A stretch of 64,000 nucleotides of DNA from Betaproteobacteria bacterium Ga0077523. GTDB lineage: Bacteria; Pseudomonadota; Gammaproteobacteria; Burkholderiales; Ga0077523. This document shows, one piece after another, positions 6,734-49,910 of the stretch. Made by a program: the position numbers and the translations under genes. The first letter of the stretch is position 1; each line of letters starts with the position of its first letter. The stretch lies in NCBI GenBank assembly GCA_001464695.1, contig LNDQ01000104.1, positions 4,748 to 68,747 of the forward strand. The letters run 5' to 3'. The notes below the pieces were generated by a model. The model did not search any database, was not told the DNA's origin, and saw nothing but the letters and a program-made list of their open reading frames with translations.

Positions 6734-7448
6734 TCTCGTCCGCGCTGTGCTCCTGGTCGGGAGCCTGGGCGCGGGGGCGTTCGTTCAGGCCCACGATCTG
6801 ATCACTGCCGAAGCCGCGGAGCGCTACATCGCGCAGGCGCAGCGCAACGTCGCGACGATTCGATCGCGCGACGAGACCGCCACACGGCGCGCCGAGGCGC
6901 ACCTGGCGCTGGCCCGCATGCAGGACGAGATTCGCGATCTGCTCAATCGCGATCTCGCCATGCACGGGCGCGTGCAGGGCCTGCCCTCCAATCTCGTGCT
7001 TGAGCGGCTGAAGGCTGCCGGTGCGCCGTTGCCGTGGTCCGAGCGACTGGGGCGCTTTGCGGCGCCGGTGGAACACTACGGCGCCGCCTACGAACTCGAT
7101 CCGCAGGGTGCGGGCGCGAATGCGGCGCTCTACGGCGTCGTGTACGGGCGGTTCTACGACAGTTTTCGCGACGATCCGCTGGTGTCGCTCGATCCTGAAC
7201 CGGCCTCGAGCCACGCCCTGATCGAGGCTGGCGAGCGCTTGGTGAATGCGTACCCGCGCGACGCCAACGTGGAAGAAGTGCGGTTCATCGTCGCCGTCGC
7301 CTGGGTGCGTGCAGCACGCAGCGGTTCGGACGCAAGGCACAGTGCGGCGCGGGCCCGCGATCTGCTCGAGCGATTTCGCAAGGACTATCCGGACAGCCTG
7401 CGATCGGCGGCAGTCCCGGTGATGCTGGAAGCGCTGCCGGCGCGGTGA
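6720..7448 (+). CDS. exported helical (TPR-like) hypothetical protein
   Basis: GTG start, signal ending VQA-H, TPR/YbgF-like C-terminus LLERFRKDYPDS. Confidence 0.6.
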   Translation: MRASSLVRAVLLVGSLGAGAFVQAHDLITAEAAERYIAQAQRNVATIRSRDETATRRAEAHLALARMQDEIRDLLNRDLAMHGRVQGLPSNLVLERLKAAGAPLPWSERLGRFAAPVEHYGAAYELDPQGAGANAALYGVVYGRFYDSFRDDPLVSLDPEPASSHALIEAGERLVNAYPRDANVEEVRFIVAVAWVRAARSGSDARHSAARARDLLERFRKDYPDSLRSAAVPVMLEALPAR

Positions 7449-9360: not shown

Positions 9361-12186
9361 ATGTTCTCCGATCTTGCGCTCGGTGCCCGATGCGATGCGC
9401 TGCTCGATGCGGGCAGTGGCCGTCCCATCGCTTGCGGACCGGGGGCATTGCAGGTGGTCTCTGCCACGGTCGAAGGCCGGCCGGTCACGGTCGTCGGTTT
9501 CGATTACGCGGTCGAACGAGGATCGATCGGTGCGCACGAGGCCGACCAGCTCGTGCGGGTCCTGAGGCGTGCGATGCAGGAACCGGTGCCGCTGGTGTTT
9601 CTGATGGACACCAGCGGTGTCCGCGTGACCGAAGGCGCTGAGGGCATCGCGGCGTTGCGCCGACTTCTGCGAGCGGCGCTCGATGCCCGCTTCGCGGGCG
9701 TGCGGATGCTGGCACTGATCGCGCGCCACTGCTTCGGCGGCGCGAGCGTGCTGGCGGCATCGTGCGAAGGTCGTATCGTGAACGCCCGGTGCATGATCGG
9801 CATGTCGGGTCCGAGGATGATCGAGTGGAGCGCGATCGACGGTCCTGCTCCGGCAAACGATGCCGACGCTGCTCGACAGCTGCTTGGCGGCGAGGCGCGA
9901 GCCAAGGTCTCCCCCGGGTTCGTTCTGATCGACGATGACGAGCAGGCCTATCGGACCGCTTTGTCGGAGTGGCTGCGTCAGGGGGCCGGCCGACCGGCGA
10001 ACGACGATCTGCTCGCTGAGGACAGGGCGCGTCTGCGTGAGCGACTGGTGAACGTGCGTCGATGGCCGCCCGCGGGTGAGGGCGCCGCGGTCGTCCTCCA
10101 TGGGGCGAATGCGTTCGTGGCAAAGAGCATTCTGGGCGATCGACACGAAGCCCGGCAATCGGGCGCGGTCCTGGATGCGTGCGCGAAGGACGGCAGTCGC
10201 CGCGTGCTTTACGGCTTGCTGGGCGGTGCCAAGGCCGACGCGGTCGACGTGCTGCGCCTCGCGGAAGCGCTGGCGGACTTGCCTGCGGACACCCGACAGG
10301 TCTCGGTCCTGCTCGACTGCGAGAGCCATTCCACCCGTGCAGCCGACGAGCAGGTCATCCTGTCCGAGTATCTCGCCTACCTCGCCCTGCAGACGCGGCA
10401 CCTGCATCGCCGCGGTATCCGCGTGACGCTCATGGTCACGGGTGTCGCCGGCGGCGGGATTCTCGCTGCTCTTGCCTGCGCTGCGAGCGAGGTCGGCATC
10501 GTGGCCGACGGCCGCCTGCGCGTCCTGCCGCGAGCGGCGCTGGCTGCCATCAACAAGTCGGGGGCCGCGTACGACAGCACGCCTGAGCATGCGGTCGCGA
10601 CCGGCGCAGTGGACGCGATCTTCGACAGCGACACCGAGCGCGCGAATGCGTCGAACGGTAACCGCAACTTCTACGCCGTGGTTGCAGCCCGGTGGGCGGA
10701 GCGGCCCGATGCCGAGTGCATCGAAAGCGATCGCGGCGTCTCGTACACGTTCGCGGACATCGACTGCCTGTCGGCGCAGTATGCCCATGCGCTGCTCGCA
10801 CTGGGCTGCATGCGCGACGACAGGGTCGCAGTTCAGGTGGAGAAGTCAGCGCAGGCGCTGGCGCTGTTCCTGGCGTGCCTGCGCGCCGGGATCATCTATC
10901 TGCCACTCAACACGGCATACCAGCCTGCGGAACTGGTCCAGTTCCTCGCCGATGCGCAGCCGCGCGTCTTCGTGTGTCGGGAGGAGCAGATCGATGAGAT
11001 GCGCGAGCTCGCACGCGGGGCCGGTGTGCCGCATGTGGCGGGGTTGAATCCAGCGGGGCTGGGATCGTTCGCCGAAGCCGCCGCCCATCGTCCGGTGCAT
11101 TTCGTCACCGCCGCCCGGTCCGAGGAGGATACGGCGACGATCCTGTACACATCGGGTACCACCGGCCGCTCGAAGGGCGCGATGCTGAGTCACCGCGCGA
11201 TGATCTGGTGTGCCCGGACGCTCGCCCGTTGCTGGGCGTTCAGCGAGCGCGATACGCTGCTGCACGCACTGCCGCTGTTCCACGGGCACGGTCTGTTCGT
11301 GTCGTCCTGTGTCGCACTGGTGTCGGGCGCCCGGATGATCTTCCATCGGAAGTTCGATGCCGCCGCTGTGCGGGATGCCTTGCCTCGTGCCACCGTGTTC
11401 ATGGCGGTACCCACGTTCTACCATCGGCTGCTCGCCGACGCGGCCTTCGATCGCGATTCGATTCGTGGGGTGCGCTTGTTCACCTCGGGCTCGGCGCCGC
11501 TGTCGGCTCAGGTGCACGAGGCGTTCCATGCTCGCACCGGATTTCGGATCGTCGAGCGCTATGGGGCGACGGAGACCATGATTCTGACGTCGAACCCGCT
11601 GCAGGGCGAACGGCGTGCCGGTTCGGTCGGAATCCCGCTGCCGGGCGTCGAGCTGCGCATCGCCAACCAGGAGGACCGGCCCTTGAGCATGGGTGAGGTG
11701 GGCATGATCCAGGTGCGCGGGCCTGGCCTTTTTTCGGGATACTGGCGCATGCCCGAGAAAACTCAGGAGGACTTTACCGCCGACGGATTCTTCCGGACCG
11801 GCGATCTGGGCACGGTTTCCGCCGATGGCTACCTCGAGATCACCGGGCGTGCGAAGGACATGATCATCAGCGGTGGCTACAACGTGTACCCCATCGAGAT
11901 CGAAGGCGTGCTCGATTCACACCCTTCGGTCGCGGAATCGGCGGTCATCGGTGTGCCGCATCCCGATTTCGGCGAGGCGGTCGTTGCGGTCATCGTCCCG
12001 AGCGATGCGAACTGCAGGGCGGAGGAACTGGTGTCGTGGGTCAGGACACGTCTCGCGAACTACAAAGTGCCGAAACACGTGGTGGTCATCGATCAGCTCC
12101 CGCGCAATGCTCTGGGCAAGGTGCAGAAGAACGTGTTGCGCGAGTCGTACGCGAGTCTCGGTCGAGGCGCCGCGGGCGGGGGGTAG
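9361..12186 (+). CDS. fusion of malonate decarboxylase MdcD-like and MdcE-like carboxyltransferase domains with a MatB-like malonyl-CoA synthetase
   Basis: N-terminal LLDAGS, DTSGVRVTEG, CFGG and GMSGPRMIE (MdcD/AccD-like); LLDCESH..EQVILSEYLA and GVAGGG (MdcE-like); C-terminal YLPLNTAY, YTSGTTGRSKG, ERYGATET, FRTGD and PRNALGKVQK (MatB). Confidence 0.8.
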   Translation: MFSDLALGARCDALLDAGSGRPIACGPGALQVVSATVEGRPVTVVGFDYAVERGSIGAHEADQLVRVLRRAMQEPVPLVFLMDTSGVRVTEGAEGIAALRRLLRAALDARFAGVRMLALIARHCFGGASVLAASCEGRIVNARCMIGMSGPRMIEWSAIDGPAPANDADAARQLLGGEARAKVSPGFVLIDDDEQAYRTALSEWLRQGAGRPANDDLLAEDRARLRERLVNVRRWPPAGEGAAVVLHGANAFVAKSILGDRHEARQSGAVLDACAKDGSRRVLYGLLGGAKADAVDVLRLAEALADLPADTRQVSVLLDCESHSTRAADEQVILSEYLAYLALQTRHLHRRGIRVTLMVTGVAGGGILAALACAASEVGIVADGRLRVLPRAALAAINKSGAAYDSTPEHAVATGAVDAIFDSDTERANASNGNRNFYAVVAARWAERPDAECIESDRGVSYTFADIDCLSAQYAHALLALGCMRDDRVAVQVEKSAQALALFLACLRAGIIYLPLNTAYQPAELVQFLADAQPRVFVCREEQIDEMRELARGAGVPHVAGLNPAGLGSFAEAAAHRPVHFVTAARSEEDTATILYTSGTTGRSKGAMLSHRAMIWCARTLARCWAFSERDTLLHALPLFHGHGLFVSSCVALVSGARMIFHRKFDAAAVRDALPRATVFMAVPTFYHRLLADAAFDRDSIRGVRLFTSGSAPLSAQVHEAFHARTGFRIVERYGATETMILTSNPLQGERRAGSVGIPLPGVELRIANQEDRPLSMGEVGMIQVRGPGLFSGYWRMPEKTQEDFTADGFFRTGDLGTVSADGYLEITGRAKDMIISGGYNVYPIEIEGVLDSHPSVAESAVIGVPHPDFGEAVVAVIVPSDANCRAEELVSWVRTRLANYKVPKHVVVIDQLPRNALGKVQKNVLRESYASLGRGAAGGG

Positions 12187-34796: not shown

Positions 34797-35177
34797 CAGT
34801 TCTGGCGCGGACCAGCTACCTCGATCCCTCTGGGAGTGGCGTTTTCCGCACTCAGAAATCTTCCCGCCAAAGGGCCATGTCGGGACTTGGATGCGGCGAC
34901 GCAACATCCTGAATGATTGGACAAATGTTCCTTGTCTCGCGTTGACCCGCTCAGGGCGATGTGCTTAGATCATCGCGTCCCTGCCTGGGAAGTAAATCTG
35001 CAGTTGCGTGGCTCCCGAAGTCGGCGAAGCTCATGCGTTTCCGACTTTGCGGTCAACCGCCTTCACGGCGGCATCGGTGGAGCAAGAACCGGGGGCAGTA
35101 ACGATGTGAAGAGTGGTGACCCGTCGTGCCGGGCCGCCTCGATTTTCATTCGGAAAAATCTCGGGAGGAGTGACGCA

Positions 35178-36986
35178 ATGAAGTGCACCTATAAACAGGT
35201 AGTGTTTTCGCTCGCGCTCGCAACGACCCCGCTGGCGGCGTTCGCGAATGCGGACGTCGAGAAGCTGACCGCAGACCCGAAGAACTGGGCGATGCAGGCC
35301 GGCGATATGTACAACCAGCGCTACAGCAAGTTGAAGCAGGTCAACGACAGCAACGTCAACAAGTTGCAGGTCGCATGGATGTTCTCGACCGGTGTACTGC
35401 GCGGGCATGAAGGTTCGCCCCTGGTGATCGGCGACATGATGTACCTCCATTCGCCGTTCCCCAACAAGGTGTTCGCGATGGACCTGAACACCAACAAGAT
35501 CGTGTGGAAGTACGAGCCGAAGCAGGATCCGGCCGTCATTCCGCAGATGTGCTGCGACACGGTCAACCGGGGTCTGGCCTATGGCGAAGGCAAGGTGATC
35601 CTGCAGCAGGCCGACAGTACCCTGGTCGCCCTGGACGCCAAGACCGGCAAGGTGGTGTGGTCGGTGAAGAACGGCGATCCGAAGCTGGGTGCCGTCAACA
35701 CCAACGCCCCGCACATCTTCAAGGACAAGGTGATCACCGGCATCAGCGGCGGCGAGTGGGGTGTGCGCGGTTTCGTCGCGGCCTACAACCTCAAGGACGG
35801 CAAGATGGCCTGGAAGGGCTACAGCGTCGGTCCGGACGAGGAGATGCTGATCGATCCGAACACCACGACCACGTGGGCCGACGGCAAGGTCACGCCGGTG
35901 GGTGCCGATTCCTCGCTGAAGACCTGGAAAGAGGATCAGTGGAAGATCGGCGGCGGCACCACCTGGGGCTGGTACAGCTACGACAAGGCGCTCAACCTGA
36001 TGTACTACGGCACGGGCAACCCGAGCACGTGGAATCCGGCCCAGCGTCCCGGCGACAACAAGTGGAGCATGACCATCTTCGCGCGTGACGTCGACACCGG
36101 CAAGGCGAAGTGGGTCTACCAGATGACGCCGTACGACGAGTGGGATTTCGACGGCATCAACGAGATGATCCTCGCCGACATCAACGTGAAGGGCAAGGCC
36201 ACCAAGGCGCTGGTGCACTTCGACCGCAACGGCTTCGGCTACACGCTCGACCGTACCAACGGCGCGCTGCTGGTGGCCGAGAAGTACGACCCGAAGGTGA
36301 ACTGGGCCACGCACGTCGACATGAAGTCCGGTCGGCCGCAAGTGGTCGCGAAGTACAGCACCGCGCAGAACGGTCCCGACGTCAACACCAAGGGCGTGTG
36401 TCCTGCAGCCCTCGGCAGCAAGGACCAGCAACCGGCTGCGTACTCGCCCGACACCAAGCTCTTCTACGTCCCGACCAACCACGTGTGCATGGACTACGAG
36501 CCGTTCGCGGTCGAGTACACCGCGGGTCAGCCGTATGTGGGTGCGACGCTGTCCATGTACCCGGCGCCCGGCAGCCATGGCGGCATGGGCAACTTCATCG
36601 CCTGGGACGCGGGCGCTGGCAAGATCGTCTATTCCATTCCCGAGAAGTTCTCGGTGTGGAGCGGCGCACTCGCCACCGCCGGCAACCTGGTGTTCTACGG
36701 AACGCTCGAGGGCTACATCAAGGCGATCCGCAAGAGCGACGGCAAGGAGCTCTGGAAGTTCAAGACGCCGTCCGGGATCATCGGCAACGTCTTCACCTAC
36801 GAGCACAAGGGCAAGCAGTACGTGGGCGTCTTCTCGGGCATCGGCGGCTGGGCCGGCATCGGCATGGCGGCGGGTCTCGAGAAGGACACCGACGGCCTCG
36901 GCGCCGTGGGCGGCTATCGCGAGCTGAATCAGTACACGGATCTGGGCGGTTCGCTCACCGTGTTCGCGATTCCCGGCGGTAACTGA
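35178..36986 (+). CDS. xoxF: lanthanide-dependent PQQ methanol dehydrogenase (probably XoxF5 clade)
   Basis: RGHEG, vicinal MCCD and DEWDFDG with the extra lanthanide-binding Asp; signal peptide; no mxaI nearby. Confidence 0.95.
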
Positions 36987-37075: not shown

Positions 37076-37483
37076 ATGCATCGAGTGATACTCGCGGCGG
37101 CACTTGCCTGTGCGTCCGCGGCGGTGGTCCTGGCCGAGGACAAGGCAGGCACCGTGAAGACCGAGCTGTACACCGTCGTCGACGGCTACAAGGTGGATGG
37201 CAATACCATGAAGGGCTTTCGCACCTGGCGCGCCGCCGCCTGTGATCGCTGTCACGGCGCGAACCAGGAGGGACTGGTCGGTCCTTCCCTGATCGCCAGC
37301 CTGAAAGTCCTCACCAAGGACGAGTTCAAGACCACGGTCGTCGAGGGCCGGCTCGAGAAGGGCATGGTGGCGTTCAAGACCAGCCAGCAGGTCATGGACA
37401 ATCTCGACAACCTGTACGCGTATCTCAAGGGTCGTTCCGACGGAGCCATCACGCGCACCAAGGTCGAGGAGTTGAAAGAGTGA
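37076..37483 (+). CDS. xoxG: cytochrome c, XoxG-like electron acceptor
   Basis: signal peptide, CDRCH, GPSL and distal Met in KGM; directly after xoxF. Confidence 0.8.
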   Translation: MHRVILAAALACASAAVVLAEDKAGTVKTELYTVVDGYKVDGNTMKGFRTWRAAACDRCHGANQEGLVGPSLIASLKVLTKDEFKTTVVEGRLEKGMVAFKTSQQVMDNLDNLYAYLKGRSDGAITRTKVEELKE

Positions 37484-38340
37484 GCTGCCGCGCCGTGCTG
37501 CGCGGCGTCTGCATGGCGATCGCCGGTGCGGCCGCGCTGTCTGGCGCCGGCGCGATGGCCGAAGATGCTCCCGAGCGCAAGGCGTTCCGCGTCTGCAGCG
37601 ACCCCGCCAACCTGCCGTTCTCGAACCAGGCCGGCGAGGGCTTCGAGAACAAGATCGCGGAGCTGCTTGCCGGCAGGATCGGGCTGCCGCTCGAGTACTA
37701 CTACTTTCCCCAGCGCATGAACTTCGTGCGCAACACGCTGCGCTTCAAGCTGCCTGACGAGGATTACCGGTGCGACGTCATCATGGGCGTGCCGGTCGGA
37801 TTCGAGCAGGTCGCCGCCACCCCGGCGTACTTCCGCTCGACCTATGCGCTGGTCTACGCCAAGGGGCGCAAGCTCGATGGCGTGAGTTCCGCAGCGGATC
37901 TGCTGGCGCTTGGCGAGAAACTTAAATCGATTCGGATCGGTGTATACGACCGCTCGCCCGGCACAGCGTGGCTGGCGCACCACGGCATCGTCGACTCCGG
38001 CGTGCCGTATCGCATGATGAATGCACGGCCCGATTTCTACCCGGGCGAGATCGTCGAGAAGGATGTCGTGGCTGGCGACATCGACGCGGCGATCGTCTGG
38101 GGCCCGGTCGCGGGCTACGCGGCGCGCCGGGTCACCGGTGTCGAACTGGTCGTCGTCCCCCTCAAGTCGGAGCCGGGCGTCAAGTTCGACTTCGCCGTCG
38201 CCATGGGCGTGCGGTTCGGGGAACCGAACTGGAAGCGCACCATCGAAACCCTCATCGCCGAGAATCAGGCACAGATACTGCAGATATTGCGGGAGTATCG
38301 TGTGCCTCTGGTGGATGAGCATGGAAATCCGGTTCCCTGA
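37480..38340 (+). CDS. xoxJ: XoxJ/MxaJ-like periplasmic binding protein
   Basis: RVCSDPANLPFSN, GFENKIAE and IVWGPVAGY motifs. Confidence 0.85.
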   Translation: MSCRAVLRGVCMAIAGAAALSGAGAMAEDAPERKAFRVCSDPANLPFSNQAGEGFENKIAELLAGRIGLPLEYYYFPQRMNFVRNTLRFKLPDEDYRCDVIMGVPVGFEQVAATPAYFRSTYALVYAKGRKLDGVSSAADLLALGEKLKSIRIGVYDRSPGTAWLAHHGIVDSGVPYRMMNARPDFYPGEIVEKDVVAGDIDAAIVWGPVAGYAARRVTGVELVVVPLKSEPGVKFDFAVAMGVRFGEPNWKRTIETLIAENQAQILQILREYRVPLVDEHGNPVP

Positions 38341-39253
38341 CGTATGGGCATCAACCTTCAGCCCGACACTTCGCACGAGCGGGCCGGCCGGCCCGGCATT
38401 GCGGGCGAGTCGTGGTCGCGCGGATGCTCGCTTTCCGGTCGTCCTCGGCAGCCTGCTGCTCGCTTTTTGTGCGCCGGCCCAGGCGGTGGACGCCCTGGAA
38501 CTGCGGGCGGCGATGCAGAAACTGGCACCCAGCGTGGTGCGCATCGAAGCCGCGCGCGGCGACCAGGGGCGCAACGGCATGGGCAGTGGCGTGGTGTTCG
38601 CGCCGGAGCGGGTGGCGACCAACTGCCACGTGGTCCGCAATGCGGCCGAAGTCGCGGTGCTGTCCGGCACGATGCGGTGGGAAGCAACCGCCCGGCAGGC
38701 GCACCCCCAGCACGACGTGTGCATCCTGACGGTGCCCGGCCTGTCGCTGCCATCGGTGGATTCGGCACCGTCCGGGTCGGTGCCTCCGGGTGGCCGCGTT
38801 CTCGCTCTGGGTTACAGCGGCGGCTTCGGACTGTCGCCGTCGACCGGGGCGGTCCGCGCGGCGCACGCCTTCGACGGCGGCCATGTGCTGCAGACGGATG
38901 CCGGTTTCAGCTCCGGCGCCAGCGGCGGTGGGCTCTTCGACGAGGCCGGGCACCTGGTGGGTCTGCTCACGTTCCGGCTGCCGGCGCGTGGTGCGTACTT
39001 CTTTACGGTGCCGGTGGAATGGGTGCACGCGGCTGCCGGCGCCGAGGTCACGGCGATCGGTCCGATCGTCGGCGTGGCGTCGTTCTGGGAAGGGCAGCCG
39101 AACCTGCTGCCGTACTTCCTGCGGGCTGCGACGCTGGAGGCCGCGGGCAATGCTTCGGGGCTTCTGGAACTGACCGCCCTCTGGCTCGAGGAAGAACCGC
39201 AGAACGCCGACGCACGCGCCTTTCGCGAACGCGCGCTGTCGCTGCAACGCTGA
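38321..39253 (+). CDS. trypsin-like (S1C) serine protease without PDZ domain (start uncertain)
   Basis: GSGV, TNCHV, HDVC and GASGGG catalytic-triad motifs. Confidence 0.8.
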   Translation: MEIRFPDVWASTFSPTLRTSGPAGPALRASRGRADARFPVVLGSLLLAFCAPAQAVDALELRAAMQKLAPSVVRIEAARGDQGRNGMGSGVVFAPERVATNCHVVRNAAEVAVLSGTMRWEATARQAHPQHDVCILTVPGLSLPSVDSAPSGSVPPGGRVLALGYSGGFGLSPSTGAVRAAHAFDGGHVLQTDAGFSSGASGGGLFDEAGHLVGLLTFRLPARGAYFFTVPVEWVHAAAGAEVTAIGPIVGVASFWEGQPNLLPYFLRAATLEAAGNASGLLELTALWLEEEPQNADARAFRERALSLQR

Positions 39254-39269
39254 TCCGGAGGGTCTCATA

Positions 39270-39608
39270 ATGAAGCGGCTGCTCTGCACCGCCTTGATGG
39301 CGGCTGCGCTGCCGATTGCGCACGCGAACGATTTCCCGACGGTGGACCGGGTGGAATTCGTCGAAGCATGCATGCGCGACCGCCAGGGAATGCGCCAGGA
39401 ATTCCTCTACAAGTGCGCGTGCGCCATCGATGCGCTCGCGGCCGAGGTGAAGTACGCTGAATACGTCGAGTTGCTGACGGCCGCCCGCGCGATCACCATT
39501 GCCGGCGAACGCGGTGCCGTGGTGCGCGAGGCCGCCGATGCGCAGGCCATGGCGAAACGTTTTCGTTCGCTCGAGGACAAAGCCAAGAAGCAGTGCTTTC
39601 TGGACTAG
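39270..39608 (+). CDS. small exported 4-Cys hypothetical protein
   Basis: signal ending AHA; NDFPT.DRV..V.AC, KCACAID and terminal CF. Confidence 0.75.
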   Translation: MKRLLCTALMAAALPIAHANDFPTVDRVEFVEACMRDRQGMRQEFLYKCACAIDALAAEVKYAEYVELLTAARAITIAGERGAVVREAADAQAMAKRFRSLEDKAKKQCFLD

Positions 39609-39753: not shown

Positions 39754-40590
39754 ATGAAACACGCCGCCACGCTGGTGCTTCTTTCGATGGGCTTCTCGCT
39801 AGGTGCCGCGAATGTGCGGGCCGAGGATGCCGCCGGCACCGATATCTGGACACTGGTCCGCACCAGCCTGTTCGCGGATCGTCCCATCCAGGAACCGGCC
39901 GATGACGTTGTGCGCCTGCGGATACCTTCGCGCGCCGCGGATGCTGCCGTGGTTCCCCTTGCCGTGAGTGTCGGCGGCCCGCAATCGGACGATCGCTACG
40001 TGCGGGCGTTGTACGTCGTGATCGATCGCAACCCCTCTCCGGTCGCGGCCATATTCCGCTTCACGCCGCTGAGCGGGCGCGCCGACATCGAAACGCGGGT
40101 GCGAATCGAGGACTACACCCACGTGCGTGCCATCGCCGAAATGAACACCGGCGAGCTGTACGCCGCGACGAAATACGTGAAGGCTGCGGGCGGATGCTCG
40201 GCGCCGGCCGCGAAGTCGGACGGCACGACCGGGCTCGGCCGCATGCGGCTGGTGCTGGAGGATGCCGCCGCTTCAGGCGGGCCGGCTACGGCGCGCCTGT
40301 CGGTGATGCATCCGAACCATTCCGGTCTGGCCATGGATCAGTTCACGCGTCACTACACGCCTGCCTATTTCGTGCGCTCCATCGCAGTGAGCTTTCGCGG
40401 CGAACCGGTCATGACGGCCGACGTGGATTTCTCCATCAGCGAGAATCCGAGCGTGCGCTTTCATTTCGTCGCGAGCGAAGCGGGCGAGTTGAAGGCGCAG
40501 GTGGTGGATACGAAGGACCTCACGTTCGAGACGGTGCTCGATGTGAATCCGGCGGGGGTGAGCAAGGCTGCGGCGGAGGTCGGGCGGTAG
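39754..40590 (+). CDS. quinoprotein dehydrogenase-associated SoxYZ-like fusion carrier
   Basis: DRNPSP, VKAAGGCSAP swinging-arm motif, HPNHSG and SISENP. Confidence 0.88.
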   Translation: MKHAATLVLLSMGFSLGAANVRAEDAAGTDIWTLVRTSLFADRPIQEPADDVVRLRIPSRAADAAVVPLAVSVGGPQSDDRYVRALYVVIDRNPSPVAAIFRFTPLSGRADIETRVRIEDYTHVRAIAEMNTGELYAATKYVKAAGGCSAPAAKSDGTTGLGRMRLVLEDAAASGGPATARLSVMHPNHSGLAMDQFTRHYTPAYFVRSIAVSFRGEPVMTADVDFSISENPSVRFHFVASEAGELKAQVVDTKDLTFETVLDVNPAGVSKAAAEVGR

Positions 40591-43045: not shown

Positions 43046-43332
43046 GTCGGGCTCCGGAAGGTGTTGATATCGGCGCGCTGATTATGGCCGCGTTGACCGC
43101 TCCGGGCGACCGTCCCGTTCGTGCGACGCAGAGGCGTGCAGGACATCGGAACGCACAGTGATGGTGCGGCGCGGAAAACACGCACCGGTGGCGGGCACCG
43201 GTTGACAATGTGTCGCCGTGGAACGAAATTGCGGGCGTCGGCGGTGCAATGCGCGTCGATTCGTTGCGGAACGCATCGGGATCAGGCGAATCCCCGGGCG
43301 GTCCGACCTTCGCACAATACGGGAGACCAGCC

Positions 43333-44508
43333 ATGAAGCGGACCCTGACGTCTGTCGCTTTCGCCGCCGCCTGCCTCGCAGCAGCGCCGGTCGTCCTGGC
43401 GGACGAGCTGAAGGACCTGCCGGCGAGCGCGAAGCCGCTCGGGGGCGAGCAGCACAACCTCGCGACCCTGTCGAAGCCCTATCCGAAGCGCGTGTACGTG
43501 CTGGAACCGATCTTCCCGGTCTTCGTCGCCGGCAAGATCTGGGTCATCAACGGCGAGAAGCAGGACATCGAGGCCGTGATGAGCGCGGGTTATGCACCGA
43601 ACTTCGCCATCGCCCCCGATCATTCCCAGCTCTACGTCTTCGACACGTACTGGTCGAAGGGCTTCCGCGGTACCCGCTCGGACATGGCGACATTCTATGA
43701 CCCGCTCAACCTCACGATCGGCGCGGATGTCGATCTGCCCAAGGGGCGGTTCCTGGTGGTGCCGAAGAAGCAGAATGCCGAGGTGACGCCCGACGGGCGC
43801 TACCTGCTCTCCTACAACCTTGCTCCGGCAACGACGGTGAGCGTGGTCGACACCAAGGAGCGCAAGTACAAGGGCGACGTCGAGATTCCCGGCTGCGGGC
43901 TCATCTTCCCGTCCGCCGGCAACCGCTTCTCGTCGGTCTGCTCGGACGGTACGCTCGCCACGGCCACCTTCGACGCGAACATCAAGGCGACGATCACGCG
44001 CAGCAGCAAGTTCTTCGATCCCGACGGCGATCCGGTGCTGGAGCACGTCGGCATCGACAAGAAGAAGGGCATGGTCTATTTCGTCAGCTACGAGGGCAAC
44101 ATCTTCCCGGTCGATATATCCAAGGAGAAGCCGGCATTCCAGCCCAAGTGGTCGCTGCTGACCGACGAGGACAAGGCCGAGAGCTGGTATCCCGGCGGCT
44201 GGCAGCTGATCGCGCTGCACCGGGCGACGCAGAAGCTGTACGTGCTGATGCACAAGGGGCCGAAATGGACCCACAAGCAGGCCGGCGAGGAAGTGTGGGT
44301 GTTCGATGCCAAGACCAAGAAGCGCATCGACCGCATCAAGTTGAAGGAACACGCCATCTCCATCACCGTGTCGCAGGATGCGGAGCCGTACCTGTTCACC
44401 CAGACCGAGAAGCCGAGCCTGATCACGTACAACCTGAAGGACGGTTCCGAGGTCGGAGAGGTGGAGTTCGGCATTTCCCCCTACCTGCTCTACGTGGACG
44501 GCGACTGA
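43333..44508 (+). CDS. mauB: TTQ amine dehydrogenase large (beta-propeller) subunit
   Basis: signal peptide; G.RSD, NLAPATTVSVVD, IPGC, PGGWQ, HK..GEEVWV motifs. Confidence 0.9.
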   Translation: MKRTLTSVAFAAACLAAAPVVLADELKDLPASAKPLGGEQHNLATLSKPYPKRVYVLEPIFPVFVAGKIWVINGEKQDIEAVMSAGYAPNFAIAPDHSQLYVFDTYWSKGFRGTRSDMATFYDPLNLTIGADVDLPKGRFLVVPKKQNAEVTPDGRYLLSYNLAPATTVSVVDTKERKYKGDVEIPGCGLIFPSAGNRFSSVCSDGTLATATFDANIKATITRSSKFFDPDGDPVLEHVGIDKKKGMVYFVSYEGNIFPVDISKEKPAFQPKWSLLTDEDKAESWYPGGWQLIALHRATQKLYVLMHKGPKWTHKQAGEEVWVFDAKTKKRIDRIKLKEHAISITVSQDAEPYLFTQTEKPSLITYNLKDGSEVGEVEFGISPYLLYVDGD

Positions 44509-44590
44509 GGTGAACGTTCCCCCCGATAGGCCTTTCGGCCTCTCCCCCCAGGGGGCCAGCCCTCTTGGGGCGGCCCGGCGAGGGCTGAGC
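44506..44590. repeat. intergenic REP-like element, family B copy 2
   Basis: tgaggtgaacgttccccccgataggcctttcggcctctccccccagggggccagccct...agggctgagc. Confidence 0.8.
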
Positions 44591-44607
44591 CTCGAAGAGA
44601 TGCGCCC

Positions 44608-45168
44608 GTGACACTCGATCCGATCCTCGGCCTCACCGCCGCACTGACGCTCGCGCTCGTCTTCGGGCTGGGTGCGGTGAGCAAGTTCGCCGCGTGGGCC
44701 GAGCTGGAAGGGGTCGTCGCGAATTTCCGGGTGCTGCCGCGGGCGCTGGTGCCCTTGGTCGCCCGCTTGCTGCCGCCGGTGGAAGTGCTGCTCGCCATCG
44801 GCGTGTTGATCCCGGCGACCCGTGCTGCCGCGGCGCTGGGCATGGCCGTGCTGCTGGTGGTCTTCGCGGCGGCCATCGCACTCAACGTCGCGCGCGGACG
44901 CACCGGCATCGATTGCGGGTGCTTCCGCTCGTCGCTCAAGCAGAACCTGTCGTGGTGGCTGGTGCTGCGCAACGGCTTGCTGCTGGGGCTCGCCCTCGCC
45001 TGTGTTGCCACCCCCGGACCCCGCGAACTCGGCTGGGCCGACAACTTCATCGTCGTGATGGCGGCGCTCACGCTGTTCATCGCCTATCTGTCGGTGGGCT
45101 ACGTCACGCTGAGGGTGCTGCCCACCTTCGAAGACAACTATCAGCGCTCGCTCTCCGGGCGAGGTTAG
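44608..45168 (+). CDS. mauE: methylamine utilisation membrane protein MauE
   Basis: several TM helices, RGR..IDCGC and LRN motifs. Confidence 0.9.
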   Translation: MTLDPILGLTAALTLALVFGLGAVSKFAAWAELEGVVANFRVLPRALVPLVARLLPPVEVLLAIGVLIPATRAAAALGMAVLLVVFAAAIALNVARGRTGIDCGCFRSSLKQNLSWWLVLRNGLLLGLALACVATPGPRELGWADNFIVVMAALTLFIAYLSVGYVTLRVLPTFEDNYQRSLSGRG

Positions 45169-45177
45169 GAATACGCC

Positions 45178-45810
45178 ATGTCCTACGAAGTGCTGCTCTA
45201 CTCGAACATCCTGCTGTGGGTCGTGGTGCTCGCCCTTGGTGCCGTGATATTCGGCATGGTGCGCCAAGTGGGCATCCTGCACGAGCGCGTGGCGCCCATG
45301 GGCGCGATGATGAACGACCACGGTCCGGAAGTCGGCGAGATGGCGCCCGACATGAAGGTGGCCGGCATCGACGGCAACCTGATCCGCATCGGCGGGGCCG
45401 CTGCGGACCGGAAGGGGCGCCTCCTGCTGTTCGTGTCGCCGACGTGCCCGATCTGCAAGAAGCTACTGCCGATCGCGAAGTCGTTCGCCTCCGGCGAGAA
45501 GCTTGCCGTCGTGCTGGTGGGCGATGGCGACCTGGCCGAGCAGCGGCAGATGATCGCTCAGCACAAGCTCGAGGGCATCGACTACGTGAATTCGCCACAG
45601 GTCGGCATGACGTTCCAGGTGGGCAAGCTGCCCTATGCGATCCTGATCGACGAAGACGGTGTCATCCGCGCCAAGGGGCTCGTCAACAGTCGCGAGCACC
45701 TCGAAAGCCTCGCCATCGCGCGCGAGACCGGCTACGGCACCATCCAGGCCTATCTCAAGGCGCAGGGTTACGTGAAGGACGATGCGGCGGCGCATCGGGA
45801 AGCGGCGTGA
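45178..45810 (+). CDS. mauD: thioredoxin-like amine dehydrogenase accessory protein MauD
   Basis: RQVGILHERVAP, SPTCPICK and KGLVNSREHLESL motifs. Confidence 0.93.
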   Translation: MSYEVLLYSNILLWVVVLALGAVIFGMVRQVGILHERVAPMGAMMNDHGPEVGEMAPDMKVAGIDGNLIRIGGAAADRKGRLLLFVSPTCPICKKLLPIAKSFASGEKLAVVLVGDGDLAEQRQMIAQHKLEGIDYVNSPQVGMTFQVGKLPYAILIDEDGVIRAKGLVNSREHLESLAIARETGYGTIQAYLKAQGYVKDDAAAHREAA

Positions 45811-45870
45811 ACGGGTTGGGGTTCGGATTGACTATCATCGAAACGGCGTTGGACTAGAGGAGAAGCGGTC

Positions 45871-46413
45871 ATGGCCAAGGGACTCCAGTTCATGGACAGG
45901 TTCTTCGAACGAATGAGCCGGCGCACGGCGCAGCAGGTGTCGCGGCGGCACTTCGTGTCGGGATTGGGTGCCGCGATGGTCGGCGCGACGTTCCTGCCCG
46001 TGCTCCCGGTGAGCCGCAAGGCGCAGGCGGCCGAGGATCCGGCGGCTGCCTGGGCCAAACAGGTCGAGGCGCAGACGAAGGATCCACGCGCCTGCAACTA
46101 TTGGCGCTACTGCTCGAGCGACGGTTACCTGTGCTCGTGCTGCGGCGGCGGTCCGGCCACGTGCCCGCCGGGTTCCGTGCCTTCGCCCACGTCGTGGGTC
46201 GGCAGTTGCCTGAACCCCGACGACGGTAAGACCTATCTCATCGCCTACCGCGATTGCTGCGGCAAGGATTCGTGCCCCAAGTGTGCCTGCCTCGGTTCCG
46301 CCGGCGAGAAACCCGCGTACATTCCGCAGCTCAACAACGACATCATCTGGTGCTTCGGCGCGAGCTCGATGATCTATCACTGCTCGAGTGCGGCCATCGT
46401 CGGCCAGATCTGA
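45871..46413 (+). CDS. mauA: TTQ amine dehydrogenase small subunit
   Basis: Tat signal SRRHF; Cys-rich; both TTQ Trp positions present (TSWVGSC and NDIIWCFG). Confidence 0.93.
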   Translation: MAKGLQFMDRFFERMSRRTAQQVSRRHFVSGLGAAMVGATFLPVLPVSRKAQAAEDPAAAWAKQVEAQTKDPRACNYWRYCSSDGYLCSCCGGGPATCPPGSVPSPTSWVGSCLNPDDGKTYLIAYRDCCGKDSCPKCACLGSAGEKPAYIPQLNNDIIWCFGASSMIYHCSSAAIVGQI

Positions 46414-46431
46414 GCGCAAAGCGGAGTCGTC

Positions 46432-46968
46432 GTGAAGGGGAGGATGGCCAGCTTCGCGCTGGCCATTGCGTTCGTGCCGACGAGCGCGTTGGCGCAGACA
46501 CCGACCGTCTCGCCCGAGTCGGTGCCCGACGTGCTCGTGCGCGAGCGCGGCACATGGTTGCCCAAGGTGGCGCCGGTGGAAGAGGACTATTCCCGCAACT
46601 GCCAGGGTTGCCACGGGCACGAAGGGCATTCGGTACAGGAGGTGCCGCGCCTGCAGGGGCGGGCCGGCTGGTTCACCCATACCAGCGCAGGTCGGGCGTA
46701 CCTGGTGCAGGTGCCCAACGTACTGCAATCGTCGCTGCCCGACGAGCGGCTCGCCGCGATGCTGAACTGGCTGCTGACCCAGTTCAGCGGCGAGCAGCTG
46801 AAGCCCGGCTTCGAGCCTTACACCGCGGCTGAGGTCCATGCGTTGCGCGCGCAGCGCATCGAAAGCGTCATTGCACGGCGGCGCGAAGTGGTCGATGGTC
46901 TGGTCCGCGCCGGGGTCATCCCCGACGCCGCCGCGCTCGCGTTCAGTCTCGAACCGGGTCGATATTGA
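46432..46968 (+). CDS. monoheme cytochrome c associated with amine dehydrogenase
   Basis: signal peptide, CQGCH, GRAYLVQVP. Confidence 0.85.
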   Translation: MKGRMASFALAIAFVPTSALAQTPTVSPESVPDVLVRERGTWLPKVAPVEEDYSRNCQGCHGHEGHSVQEVPRLQGRAGWFTHTSAGRAYLVQVPNVLQSSLPDERLAAMLNWLLTQFSGEQLKPGFEPYTAAEVHALRAQRIESVIARRREVVDGLVRAGVIPDAAALAFSLEPGRY

Positions 46969-48335
46969 TCTCGCGTCGGCGCTTTCTTCAGGCCTCGGGT
47001 GGCCTGGTGCTGCCGTTCGCCGACGTCGGGCTGCGTGCGGCGTTCGGTTCGCAACCGGAGTTGCCGGCCGTGCCGGAGCTGGCGTTCGATCGCAGCGAAC
47101 CGGGGCTCGCGCGCGGCAGGCTGGTCGCGGCACCGGCGCGTGCGACGATCAACGGCCAGGTGGTGAACGCGCTCACCTACAACGGCAGTTTTCCGGGACC
47201 GCTACTCAGGGTGCGGGAGGGCGAGACGGTGCAGTTGCGCTTCGAGAATCGCACCGATGCCGACAGCAACCTGCATTTCCACGGGCTGTCGCTGCCGCCC
47301 GGCGGCCGTGCGGACAACGTCTGGCTCCATCTGCCGCCGGGTGTTGCATTCGACTACGAGTTCGTCGTGCCGCACGGTAACGCGGGCCTGCACTGGTACC
47401 ACCCGCATATCCACGGCAAGACGGCGCGGCCGATGTTTCGCGGCCTGGCGGGGCCGATCCTGGTCGAAGGCGACTACGCGTTCGAACGGGAACTCGATTG
47501 CGACGACCGGGTGCTGGTGCTGAAGGACATCACGTTCGACGGCGACGGGATCGAGGAGCACTCGCGCAACGAATGGGCGGTGGGCAAGGAAGGCAAGCTG
47601 CTGCTCGTGAACGGCGTGGAGCGCCCCGTCATCCGGGCGCGCAAGTCGCTGGTGCGGTTGCGCCTCCTCAATGCCTCGAACGCGCGCTATTGGCGTCTCA
47701 GGCGATCCGACGAACGGCCGCTGGTGGTGATCGCACACGACGGACGCTATCTCGATCATCCGCGGGAATCCGCGGATATCTTCCTCGTGCCCGGTGCTCG
47801 CGCCGAGGTACTGGTGGTGCTCGACGATGCCGCGCCCGTGGAACTCTGGTATTTCCCCACGCCGCGCCGCGGCATGGCGTTCACCGAACCGCAGCCGCTC
47901 GTGACGATCGAGCCGCCGGGCGTTCTCACGAAGGCGTCGTGGCCCGATGCGCTGGTGCCGCACACGCCGTTCCGAGAAAGCGAGGCCGAGATCGAACGCG
48001 AGATCATCCTGTCGCTCTTCAACATCTGTTCGCGCTTTCTCGACGAGAGCCAGGTCAACATCCGCACGCACCGCGACGCGAAGGAGATCTGGCGCGTGCG
48101 CAACGTGGACATCATGGACCATCCGTTCCACCTGCATACGTGGCACTACGAGGTGCTCGACGTGAACGGCACCGCACCGGCCTATCGTGCCCAGCGCGAC
48201 ATGTTCAACATCCGCGAAGGCGACACGGTGCGCATCGGCATCCACTTCACCGAGCACACCGGACGTACCCTCTATCACTGCCATTTTGCCGAGCACGCGG
48301 ACCGCGGCATGATGGCCATCCTGCAAGTCGACTGA
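46965..48335 (+). CDS. Tat-exported three-domain multicopper oxidase
   Basis: SRRRFLQ; HFHG, WYHPH, HPFHLH and HCHFAEHADRGM copper motifs; TTGA overlap with the upstream gene. Confidence 0.92.
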   Translation: MISRRRFLQASGGLVLPFADVGLRAAFGSQPELPAVPELAFDRSEPGLARGRLVAAPARATINGQVVNALTYNGSFPGPLLRVREGETVQLRFENRTDADSNLHFHGLSLPPGGRADNVWLHLPPGVAFDYEFVVPHGNAGLHWYHPHIHGKTARPMFRGLAGPILVEGDYAFERELDCDDRVLVLKDITFDGDGIEEHSRNEWAVGKEGKLLLVNGVERPVIRARKSLVRLRLLNASNARYWRLRRSDERPLVVIAHDGRYLDHPRESADIFLVPGARAEVLVVLDDAAPVELWYFPTPRRGMAFTEPQPLVTIEPPGVLTKASWPDALVPHTPFRESEAEIEREIILSLFNICSRFLDESQVNIRTHRDAKEIWRVRNVDIMDHPFHLHTWHYEVLDVNGTAPAYRAQRDMFNIREGDTVRIGIHFTEHTGRTLYHCHFAEHADRGMMAILQVD

Positions 48336-48356
48336 CTTTCCTTCGAAGGAGCTGCC

Positions 48357-48665
48357 ATGAATCGGACCCTCGTACTTATCGCTCTCGCCCTGTGTGCCAC
48401 CGGCGCGCAGGCGGGTGACCCCGAAGCGGGCAAGGCCAAGTCCGCGCCCTGTTCGATCTGTCATGGGGCCGACGGCAAGGCCCAGATTCCCATGTATCCG
48501 AAGCTGGCGGGTCAGAACGAGCCCTACCTGGTGAGTGCGCTCAAGGCGTACAAGAACGGCGATCGCAAAGGGGCGATGGCCGGCATGATGACGCCGAACG
48601 TGGCGAATCTCTCCGACGCCGATATCGAGGATCTCGCGGCGTTCTACCACAGCCTGCAGCCGTGA
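48357..48665 (+). CDS. cytochrome c553/c554-like
   Basis: [22 protein letters not shown] and distal Met in MMTP. Confidence 0.92.
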
Positions 48666-48707: not shown

Positions 48708-49910
48708 TCACCAGCTCGGTTCGCGGTCCGGTGTGGCGCCGATCTTGTGGATCGACAGATCCGCCCCTTCGAATTCCTGTTCGGCATCGAGCCGCAGCCC
48801 CACCAGGCGCTTCAGGAACTGGTAGATGATGAAGCCGCCGACCACCGCGATGCCGATGCCCAGCGCAGTTCCGATGAGCTGCGCACCGAGGGTCACGCCA
48901 CCCATGCCTCCGAGCGCCTTGGCGCCGAAGATGCCGCATGCGATGCCGCCCCATGCACCGCACAGGCCGTGCAGCGGCCACACCCCCAGCACGTCGTCGA
49001 TCTTCCAGCGATTCTGGATGAGCGGAAACATGAACACGAAGAGCCATCCGGCCACGCCGCCCACCACGAGAGAACCGACCGGGTGCATCACGTCGGAGCC
49101 TGCACAGACCGCGACCAGCCCGGCGAGCGGTCCGTTGTGCACGAAGCCCGGGTCGTTCTTGCCGAAGAAGGTCGCGGCGAGCGTGCCGCCGACCATCGCC
49201 ATCAGCGAGTTCATCGCGACCAGCCCGCTCATCTTGTCGAGAGTCTGCGCGCTCATCACGTTGAAGCCGAACCAGCCCACCGTGAGGATCCACGCCCCGA
49301 GCGCGAGGAACGGAATGCTCGAGGGCGGATGCGACGAGACCCCGCCATCCTTCGAATAGCGGCCGCGGCGCGGACCGAGGTGGACGACGGCCATCAGACC
49401 CAGCCAGCCCCCCACGGCATGCACGACGATCGAGCCCGCGAAGTCGTGGAAGGTCGCCCCCGTGGCTTCCAGGATCTTGTCCTGGATGCCGAAAGCGCCG
49501 TTCCAGGCGATGCCTTCGAAGAACGGATAGACGAATCCGACCACCAGGAACGTCGCGGCGAGTTGCGGGTTGAAGCGCGCGCGCTCGGCGATGCCGCCCG
49601 AGATGATCGCCGGGATCGCGGCTGCGAAGGTGAGGAGGAAGAAGAACTTCACCAGCTCGAAGCCGTTCTTCTCGGCCAGCACTTCGGCGCCCGACATGAA
49701 ATGCACGCCGTAGGCGATGCCGTAGCCGATGAAGAAATACGCGATCGTGGACACCGAAAAATCCACCAGGATCTTCACCAGCGCATTGACCTGATTCTTC
49801 TGCCGCACCGTGCCGAGCTCGAGAAACGCGAAGCCCGAGTGCATCGCCAACACCATGATCGCGCCGAGCATGACGAACAGTGCGTCGGAACCGTGTCTGA
49901 TGTCTTCCAT
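48708..49910 (-). CDS. amtB: ammonium transporter (Amt family)
   Basis: GFAFLE.G, ISGGIAER, DFAGSIVVH, GWFGFN and DDVLGVWPLHG motifs. Confidence 0.92.
   Translation of the reverse strand: MEDIRHGSDALFVMLGAIMVLAMHSGFAFLELGTVRQKNQVNALVKILVDFSVSTIAYFFIGYGIAYGVHFMSGAEVLAEKNGFELVKFFFLLTFAAAIPAIISGGIAERARFNPQLAATFLVVGFVYPFFEGIAWNGAFGIQDKILEATGATFHDFAGSIVVHAVGGWLGLMAVVHLGPRRGRYSKDGGVSSHPPSSIPFLALGAWILTVGWFGFNVMSAQTLDKMSGLVAMNSLMAMVGGTLAATFFGKNDPGFVHNGPLAGLVAVCAGSDVMHPVGSLVVGGVAGWLFVFMFPLIQNRWKIDDVLGVWPLHGLCGAWGGIACGIFGAKALGGMGGVTLGAQLIGTALGIGIAVVGGFIIYQFLKRLVGLRLDAEQEFEGADLSIHKIGATPDREPSW

Follow-up and report, generated by a model that had tools for sequence, protein, structure and literature searches.

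A multicopper oxidase and a c552-like cytochrome linked to a tryptophan tryptophylquinone amine dehydrogenase in an operon without mauG

How is an amine dehydrogenase that carries tryptophan tryptophylquinone (TTQ) completed and reoxidized when its operon holds neither mauG nor a cupredoxin gene? TTQ formation without MauG has been an open question since the aau cluster was sequenced, and it is raised again by the window analyzed here, a stretch of 64,000 nucleotides from contig LNDQ01000104.1 of assembly GCA_001464695.1 (Betaproteobacteria bacterium Ga0077523, our genome G000; 4.70 Mb in 156 contigs, 87% complete). The window contains a seven-gene operon in which mauB, mauE, mauD and mauA are followed by genes for a monoheme cytochrome (cytX), a multicopper oxidase (MCO) and a second cytochrome c (cytY). 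The original prediction, made from the sequence of the window, was that the MCO either serves as the oxidant that finishes TTQ or closes a self-contained chain from amine to O2. Comparison with related genomes makes an electron sink a more likely role for the MCO than a maturase. Specifically, we propose that the MCO is a dedicated sink that would pass electrons from the amine dehydrogenase to O2, an assignment that we hold with about as much confidence as doubt. New here are an operon in which a quinoprotein dehydrogenase is accompanied by an MCO of its own, and an exclusive family of c552-derived cytochromes; both bear on how TTQ is formed without MauG.

Within the genus, MCO orthologues (59-100% identity) were found in 16 of 25 genomes, exactly the 16 that have a mauA of the window type. 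The two genes share a contig within approximately 1-2 kb in 15 of these, and in the remaining genome, G022, they lie on separate small contigs. The order B-E-D-A-cytX-MCO-cytY was kept in all seven full loci from the genus, which probably belong to genomes also counted under our G handles. Of 401 genomes sampled from the order, 33 have a real mauA; 25 loci from 24 genomes outside the genus were examined, leaving aside G312, which is unpublished, G305, which falls below the cut-off, and G321, where mauA is a fragment of 23 residues. Two of these loci, from G180 and G197, which represent two other families, read B-E-D-A-cytX-MCO with 46-47% MCO identity; cytY is lacking in both, and the module is followed by ureGFE or lexA. 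Twenty-one have B-E-D-A (some cut by contig ends) plus a gene of the cytX family and lack an MCO, one (L090) encodes a related cytochrome in which a Met-bearing insert is retained, and one (G281) combines mauBEDA with a true MauG and has no cytX. A metagenome scan that took in more distant MCOs returned 80 loci, in four of which the MCO was 44% or more identical to that of the window. Locus L104 reads mauA-cytX-MCO-cytY and L105 is also mau-linked (MCO identities of 45-48%). L125 and L128 (48-54%) end at a contig edge on the expected mau side and were counted as uninformative; in L128 a divergent gene for a solute-binding protein lies upstream of the MCO. Neither mau nor cytX genes were found near any MCO of less than 40% identity (0 of 76 metagenome loci).

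Altogether, members of the MCO clade with at least 44% identity adjoined a window-type dehydrogenase in 20 of 20 loci with viewable contigs. Linkage to mau genes in other genomes was one of the points on which the original prediction had staked its reading of the MCO, and it came out in favor of a real association. Since the same order recurs in relatives whose MCO identity falls to 44-48%, the arrangement is not due to chance. A MauB tree of 33 rows, from which L083 was excluded because its sequence is a fragment and from which five loci without MauB are absent, separated the 11 MCO-linked rows from all others by a branch (support 91/96) that recurred in 93% of bootstrap trees. This branch groups with the MauG-linked row, apart from 21 rows resembling aromatic amine dehydrogenase (AADH). 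Together, the strict linkage and the one-branch tree support a single origin and mark the MCO as a clade-specific, stably inherited partner of one type of TTQ dehydrogenase.

Within the window the predicted gene set stands, with all seven genes on one strand (Table 1). From mauB to cytY the intergenic gaps are, in order, 99, 9, 60, 18, -4 and 21 nucleotides, the last three of which bear out the tight spacing that had been noticed after mauA. The MCO begins with TTG, which overlaps the cytX stop codon in the four nucleotides TTGA, and a strong ribosome-binding site, GAAGGAG, precedes cytY. The open frame of mauB reaches upstream to a GTG at 43210, and cytX has an alternative ATG start at 46444. 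A scan for promoters and terminators gave no signal above shuffles.

Table 1. Genes of the operon, with window coordinates and the matches that identify them.
Gene	Product and features	Position	Strand	Evidence
mauB	Large propeller subunit, Sec signal	43333-44508	+	PF06433, E 5.7e-69
mauE	Membrane accessory protein	44608-45168	+	PF07291, E 5.6e-25; kept in all related loci
mauD	Thioredoxin-like accessory protein, CPIC motif	45178-45810	+	TIGR02661, 249.6 bits (cut-off 188.6)
mauA	TTQ-carrying small subunit, twin-arginine leader SRRHF	45871-46413	+	PF02975, E 2.3e-48; TIGR02659, 212.3 bits (cut-off 196.85)
cytX	Monoheme c-type cytochrome, CQGCH	46432-46968	+	Weak Pfam matches; family profile and fold match c552
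MCO	Three-domain multicopper oxidase, laccase-like, exported by the twin-arginine translocation (Tat) pathway	46965-48335	+	PF07732, PF00394, PF07731
cytY	Small class I cytochrome c, CSICH, Sec signal	48357-48665	+	PF00034, E 7.4e-11

With a propeller subunit and the MauE and MauD genes in the order B-E-D-A, the enzyme belongs among the TTQ dehydrogenases. In an alignment of MauA to solved light chains of methylamine dehydrogenase (MADH), both TTQ tryptophans (SW..., IIWCF) and YRDCCG, the active-site Asp motif, were kept. The window MauB scored 242.8 bits on TIGR02658, under the MADH equivalog cut-off of 454.45, and its matches among solved structures (PDB) were the heavy chain of MADH, at 204 bits, and AADH, at 180. 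A PF02975 search of the genus found two mauA genes in most genomes, G000 included. The second TTQ locus of G000 (C50:23581-27005; L061:9564-13009) is an AADH-type aauB-E-D-A followed by a cytX-family cytochrome of 140 residues (monoheme CSGCH, 34% identity to cytX), and it holds no MCO and no mauG. Genes for DUF1800, DUF1501 and trypsin-like protease proteins lie upstream of it. Its large subunit gave 291 bits to the solved AADH heavy chain and 141 to MADH, which identifies this locus as the AADH orthologue of the genome. An AADH-type locus is present in 18 of the 25 genus genomes. Because the C50 paralogue matches AADH far better and the two fall on separate tree branches, the window enzyme is not the AADH orthologue, and by its sequence it represents a third type of TTQ amine dehydrogenase, orthologous neither to MADH nor to AADH. 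By our count, the mature part of both G000 small subunits (45871-46413; L061:11939-12463) has 14 cysteines, compared with 12 in the solved Paracoccus light chain, so that an extra disulfide is possible. Some AADH-type loci carry more than one cytX-family gene: L092 (G152) has tandem copies at 10315-10641 and 10792-11121, and L070 (G014) has genes at 6983-7210 and 9399-9758, one of them an extra partial copy approximately 2 kb from the other.

The original prediction reported neither mauG nor an amicyanin gene in the window, and both statements held when the whole genome was searched. The only two PF03150 (CCP_MauG) genes of G000 lie on other contigs, C112 and C91; no protein matched TIGR03791, the MauG model, at E 1e-60, and PF00127, the cupredoxin family of amicyanin and azurin type, had no match in this 87%-complete genome or in G018, G004 and G014. 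mauF and mauLMN had likewise been listed as missing, and no family search was made for either. The search for a mauG elsewhere in the genome gave a divided answer: there is no MauG equivalog, but an unlinked MauG-like paralogue, which does not track TTQ loci, is present on C112. According to PMC6405878, peroxidases of this family are distinguished by Met-His ligation, as opposed to the Tyr-His ligation of the six-coordinate heme in MauG. By this rule the C91 protein is a canonical peroxidase, with Met at the ligand column and 271 bits to CcpR. Among the 401 sampled genomes of the order, the MauG cut-off was passed only in G281, by a gene adjoining mauA, and 32 of the 33 mauA genomes have no gene above it; in this sample, a MauG-less state is the rule among TTQ genomes of the order. 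G197 (98% complete, mauBEDA-cytX-MCO) has no PF03150 gene at all. The sole family member is a Met-type peroxidase in G180, which has the same arrangement, and in G018 (99% complete) and G013 (91%), which have both TTQ loci. In L083, a gene for a Tyr-type MauG-like lipoprotein lies 7.5 kb away on the opposite strand. G024, a complete genus genome, has a second MauG-like gene (C1:1802126-1803121; its 319 bits fall short of the cut-off of the MauG model) approximately 4 kb from its only PF00127 match (C1:1806718-1806954), with the nearest TTQ locus 346 kb off.

Since many relatives (G004, G014 and 21 of the 25 loci) keep TTQ genes with neither MauG nor the MCO, a route to TTQ that depends on neither must, to judge from gene content, exist in this lineage. 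The cytochrome encoded after mauA, and not the MCO, appears to replace mauG and amicyanin across the MauG-less loci. As the sole extra gene that these loci have in common, cytX is the prime suspect for TTQ maturation where MauG is missing.

No NCBIfam model matched cytX, and its Pfam matches were weak. A 35-member profile of the cytX family matched Thermus thermophilus cytochrome c552 (1c52, 2fwl) at E 3e-20, in two pieces that skip residues 50-66. The best fold matches of an AlphaFold2 model of cytX (pLDDT 89) were also c552 (Foldseek, TM 0.66), and Ralstonia chains of the three-domain heme-Cu nitrite reductase were weak matches at ranks 9-17. The skipped loop leads into the Met ligand of c552, Met69, and at this position the family varies among L, A, V, S, M, Q, F and T. 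The only invariant residues are C36, G38, C39, H40, G44, P51, R67, A87, R129 and G140. cytX is predicted to be a cytochrome of the Thermus c552 fold that has no Met-bearing loop. Since the post-aauA cytochrome of L090, which is homologous to cytX (hhalign probability 97.7%), still holds a 16-residue insert with the Met, cytX looks like a c552-type carrier that has lost this loop. The heme may be six-coordinate after all, with a Met in LMQVPG (core AADH type) or a His in F(T/V)H (MCO-linked type) as candidate ligands of the subfamilies. The MCO-linked cytX proteins also have clade-specific N- and C-terminal extensions. In a large protein collection the family comprised 369 clusters at E<=1e-10, which, where named at all, go by "cytochrome c" or "hypothetical" only.

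The description of the MCO as a Tat-exported enzyme with a full set of T1, T2 and T3 ligands was confirmed. The protein has the Tat signal RRRF and the copper motifs HFH, HPH, HPFHLH and HCH..H....M, and all ligand columns are invariant across 11 orthologues. Among solved structures it comes closest to the Thermus thermophilus laccase (Tth-MCO), which aligns end-to-end at E of about 1e-92 to 1e-95, and its best hit is the shorter, 432-residue chain 9cpm. A Met-rich segment over the T1 site is typical of cuprous oxidases such as CueO and Tth-MCO; in the alignment, the Met-rich hairpin over the T1 site of Tth-MCO is deleted in the window protein. The wider family extends from the genus clade through a tier of 45-50% identity to proteins of Thermaceae and Deinococcus that share 37-40%; the middle tier includes P0042 (49%), which its source assigns to the cultured alphaproteobacterium Inquilinus limosus. 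On these comparisons the MCO is assigned to the three-domain laccase/CueO type, and reduction of O2 is its predicted activity. A predicted complex of the MCO with heme-bearing cytX scored 0.00 against a mark of 0.32, in a run without controls that is evidence neither way. The closest solved relatives of the MCO and of cytX, the laccase and c552, are both found in Thermus thermophilus, which may be a coincidence or may reflect an old common origin of the pair.

These features suggest the following scheme. MauAB, assembled with MauD and MauE, would oxidize a primary amine to an aldehyde and ammonium, and the reduced TTQ would hand its electrons to the c552-like cytX, standing in for amicyanin or azurin. 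cytX would then reduce the type-1 copper of the co-translated, laccase-like MCO, which would reduce O2 to water. Where cytY is present, it could act as a second shuttle, either to the MCO or to the respiratory chain. We infer the substrate, the direction and the partners of electron transfer, as well as the formation of TTQ itself. The scheme is favored since the genome has no cupredoxin acceptor and cytX is of c552-carrier descent; since the MCO has a complete copper site, no Met-rich segment and a start that overlaps the cytX stop; and since transfer from a class I heme to cupredoxin-fold copper has precedents in the c552-CuA pair and in the heme-Cu nitrite reductases. In Thermus, c552 feeds electrons into the CuA domain of ba3 oxidase, which has a cupredoxin fold. 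The strict linkage of the MCO and the single origin of its loci also speak for the scheme. The MCO would then, more simply, be an add-on to a pre-existing MauAB-cytX pair, as its terminal oxidase.

Several points count against such an outlet. Delivering electrons to a soluble oxidase wastes energy, and we know of no established mechanism for physiological transfer from a cytochrome c to a three-domain MCO. cytX occurs without the MCO in AADH-type loci, where its electrons must therefore leave by another way, and the need for a private oxidase is less than obvious. Apart from the CxxCH His, the cytX family has no invariant Met, His, Lys or Tyr; the absence of both the Met loop and an invariant distal ligand is unusual in a simple electron carrier and would fit a heme with a catalytic role. 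cytY lies outside the conserved core: loci of the genus and the metagenome locus L104 have it, but no cytY follows the MCO in L095, L098 and L105. (G000 has several cytY paralogues elsewhere.) Moreover, co-transcription of the MCO with the mau genes is not universal, as in L105 (L105:7989-12842) an MCO of 45% identity is convergent to mauB-E-D-A-cytX. Finally, no RNA run holding the window stretch was found among the sequencing runs; the DNA runs that hold it are activated-carbon, soil and biofilter metagenomes.

If the heme of cytX were catalytic, cytX could itself be the substitute for MauG, with loss of the Met loop opening the heme to peroxide or O2 chemistry on pre-MauA. This proposal is compatible with an electron sink, and we consider it doubtful. 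It draws on the distribution of the family, which was found in 31 of the 401 sampled genomes, all of them mauA-positive, with every match adjoining mauA. It is missing from just two of the 33 mauA genomes: G281, with the true MauG, and G166, whose c552-like form retains the loop and its Met. The scarcity of invariant ligands described above points the same way. In addition, the A. faecalis AADH reportedly uses azurin as its acceptor, yet its locus is said to keep the orf-2 cytochrome after aauA. However, the gene occupies the position of amicyanin, and a plain acceptor predicts the same pattern; the subfamilies also retain possible ligands, the Met and His named earlier. Chemistry is a further obstacle: MauG, according to PMC6405878, stores two oxidizing equivalents as a bis-Fe(IV) pair, which a single heme is unable to hold.

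Another possibility is that the MCO acts on a small molecule from the substrate range of the dehydrogenase, for example by oxidizing or polymerizing a phenolic or aromatic amine or a reactive product derived from the aldehyde, as a detoxifying or pathway laccase. The closest solved relatives of the MCO are laccases, the T1 site would lie open without the Met-rich hairpin, the large subunit is about equally far from MADH and AADH, and in L105 the MCO forms a separate, convergent transcription unit. We nevertheless judge this role unlikely, as the module has no conserved companion gene for an aldehyde dehydrogenase, a transporter or a regulator that would mark a small-molecule pathway. No conserved flanking gene offers a clue to the substrate: flanks are shared among close kin only, and differ between L006, L008, L095 and L098. 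The MCO start is translationally coupled to cytX in the window, and the terminal extensions of cytX are specific to the MCO-linked loci, both of which speak against such a role.

The first proposal of the original prediction, that the MCO is the TTQ-forming oxidant, has been weakened and now appears distinctly unlikely, though the MCO may have such a role within its own clade. Here the MCO would be a copper replacement for MauG, alone or through cytX, and in a mechanism that we rate no higher it would pull electrons from the mono-hydroxylated Trp of pre-MauA, in the way that laccases oxidize phenols and hydroxyindoles, and so drive the cross-link and the quinone with O2. The scarcity of MauG is in its favor, as G000 has no equivalog and one of 401 genomes passes the cut-off, G197 has no PF03150 gene, and G180, G018 and G013 have the Met-type peroxidase only. 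The MCO is also strictly linked to this MauAB clade. According to PMC11951088, MauG carries out a long-range, outer-sphere oxidation of a precursor that already bears 7-hydroxy-Trp, and by inference from this chemistry an outer-sphere copper oxidant is conceivable. Against it, sister TTQ loci have neither MauG nor an MCO (the C50 locus and 21 of 25 sampled loci, in which cytX occurs alone), and MCO orthologues are lacking altogether in G004 and G014; with the C50 locus in G000 itself, some route that needs neither must exist in the same cells. The chemistry of MCOs is electron transfer, without insertion of oxygen, and T1 copper potentials are well under what is needed to oxidize an unmodified Trp. 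A narrower version, in which the MCO works via cytX to build TTQ from the hydroxy-Trp precursor and the pair is perhaps also an electron outlet, seems to us quite improbable; if true, it would make this the first MCO shown to make a protein-derived quinone cofactor.

It is very unlikely that both TTQ enzymes are matured by the product of the unlinked MauG-like gene on C112, which would make this an ordinary MauG-dependent system with one gene dispersed. By sequence, the C112 di-heme protein has Tyr at the column of the peroxidase Met ligand, like the true MauG of G281, and it gave 102 bits to the solved MauG and 198.6 on TIGR03791. However, the latter score is under the cut-off of 443.85, and an MbnH-family model scored higher (229 bits). 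Orthologues of at least 57% identity occur in 10 of the 25 genus genomes, made up of just 9 of the 18 that bear TTQ loci plus the mauA-less G021; G018 and G013 have both TTQ loci with the Met-type peroxidase only, and G197 has no family member. The neighbors of the C112 gene are unrelated genes. Incidental linkage or copper homeostasis as the main role of the MCO was rejected given 20 linked loci with differing flanks, the absent Met-rich segment and the two other MCO genes of G000, both on contig C38 and available for copper handling.

The surroundings of the operon offer a weak hint of nitrogen scavenging. An ammonium transporter gene is convergent to the operon (48708-49910, - strand), an arrangement that recurs in four related loci and no others, those of G018 and of the close kin L003-L005, and in G180 urease accessory genes (L095:12240-14021; a UreG-like P-loop protein and its neighbors, judged by eye) follow the module. 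Upstream of the operon are a fused SoxY-SoxZ gene (39754-40590, + strand) and a gene for a pyrroloquinoline quinone (PQQ)-dependent dehydrogenase (34917-36986, + strand), and between these two lie long open reading frames without Pfam matches (37252-39373).

Whichever role the MCO has, the comparison narrows the suspects for MauG-independent TTQ formation to the cytX family and, in one clade, the MCO. G197, with no gene of the CCP/MauG family, and G018, with both locus types, are clean test cases, and P0042, if it proves to be mau-linked, would provide a culturable system. Should the MCO indeed be an electron sink, the operon would encode a soluble three-protein "amine oxidase" that yields water and not H2O2, and a rare example of an MCO as the private terminal oxidase of a dehydrogenase. 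Such a system would bear on periplasmic bioenergetics, on nitrogen scavenging in biofilter and soil bacteria, and on peroxide-free amine biosensors. In the literature searched, the accessible part of which leaves most older TTQ work outside, nothing tied an MCO to a TTQ enzyme, and the matches concerned CorA and methanethiol oxidase.

Among known systems, the heme-Cu nitrite reductase of Ralstonia pickettii and ncgABC of Nitrosomonas europaea, an MCO and two cytochromes c next to nirK, share with the window the pairing of a class I cytochrome c with type-1 copper. These systems, however, reduce nitrite or have unknown substrates and have no tie to a quinoprotein dehydrogenase, and the window has no fusion. 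cytX resembles Thermus c552 in profile and fold and differs from it by the loss of residues 50-66 and of the conserved ligand Met, and the MCO aligns with Tth-MCO end-to-end but does not have its Met-rich hairpin; to our knowledge, the two Thermus proteins are not known to work together. In Paracoccus denitrificans and methylotrophs the mau genes are ordered mauFBEDACJGLMN. The window shares with this cluster the B-E-D-A order, MauA and MauD proteins above their cut-offs, the TTQ tryptophans and the catalytic Asp motif, whereas it has no MauG equivalog, no PF00127 cupredoxin in the genome and a MauB well under the MADH cut-off. The place of mauC-J-G after mauA is taken in the window by the c552-like cytX, the MCO and cytY. 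The nearest described organization is that of the Alcaligenes faecalis aau cluster, reportedly (in work by Chistoserdov in 2001 and Hothi in 2005) aauBEDA with an orf-2 monoheme cytochrome and no mauG. We take orf-2, from its position and type, to be the counterpart of cytX. The window has in common with it a MauG-less B-E-D-A followed by a small monoheme cytochrome, and departs from it in a MauB that is not the AADH orthologue and in the MCO, which is absent from 21 of 21 sampled loci that have cytX only. The C50 locus of the same genome is of the A. faecalis type.

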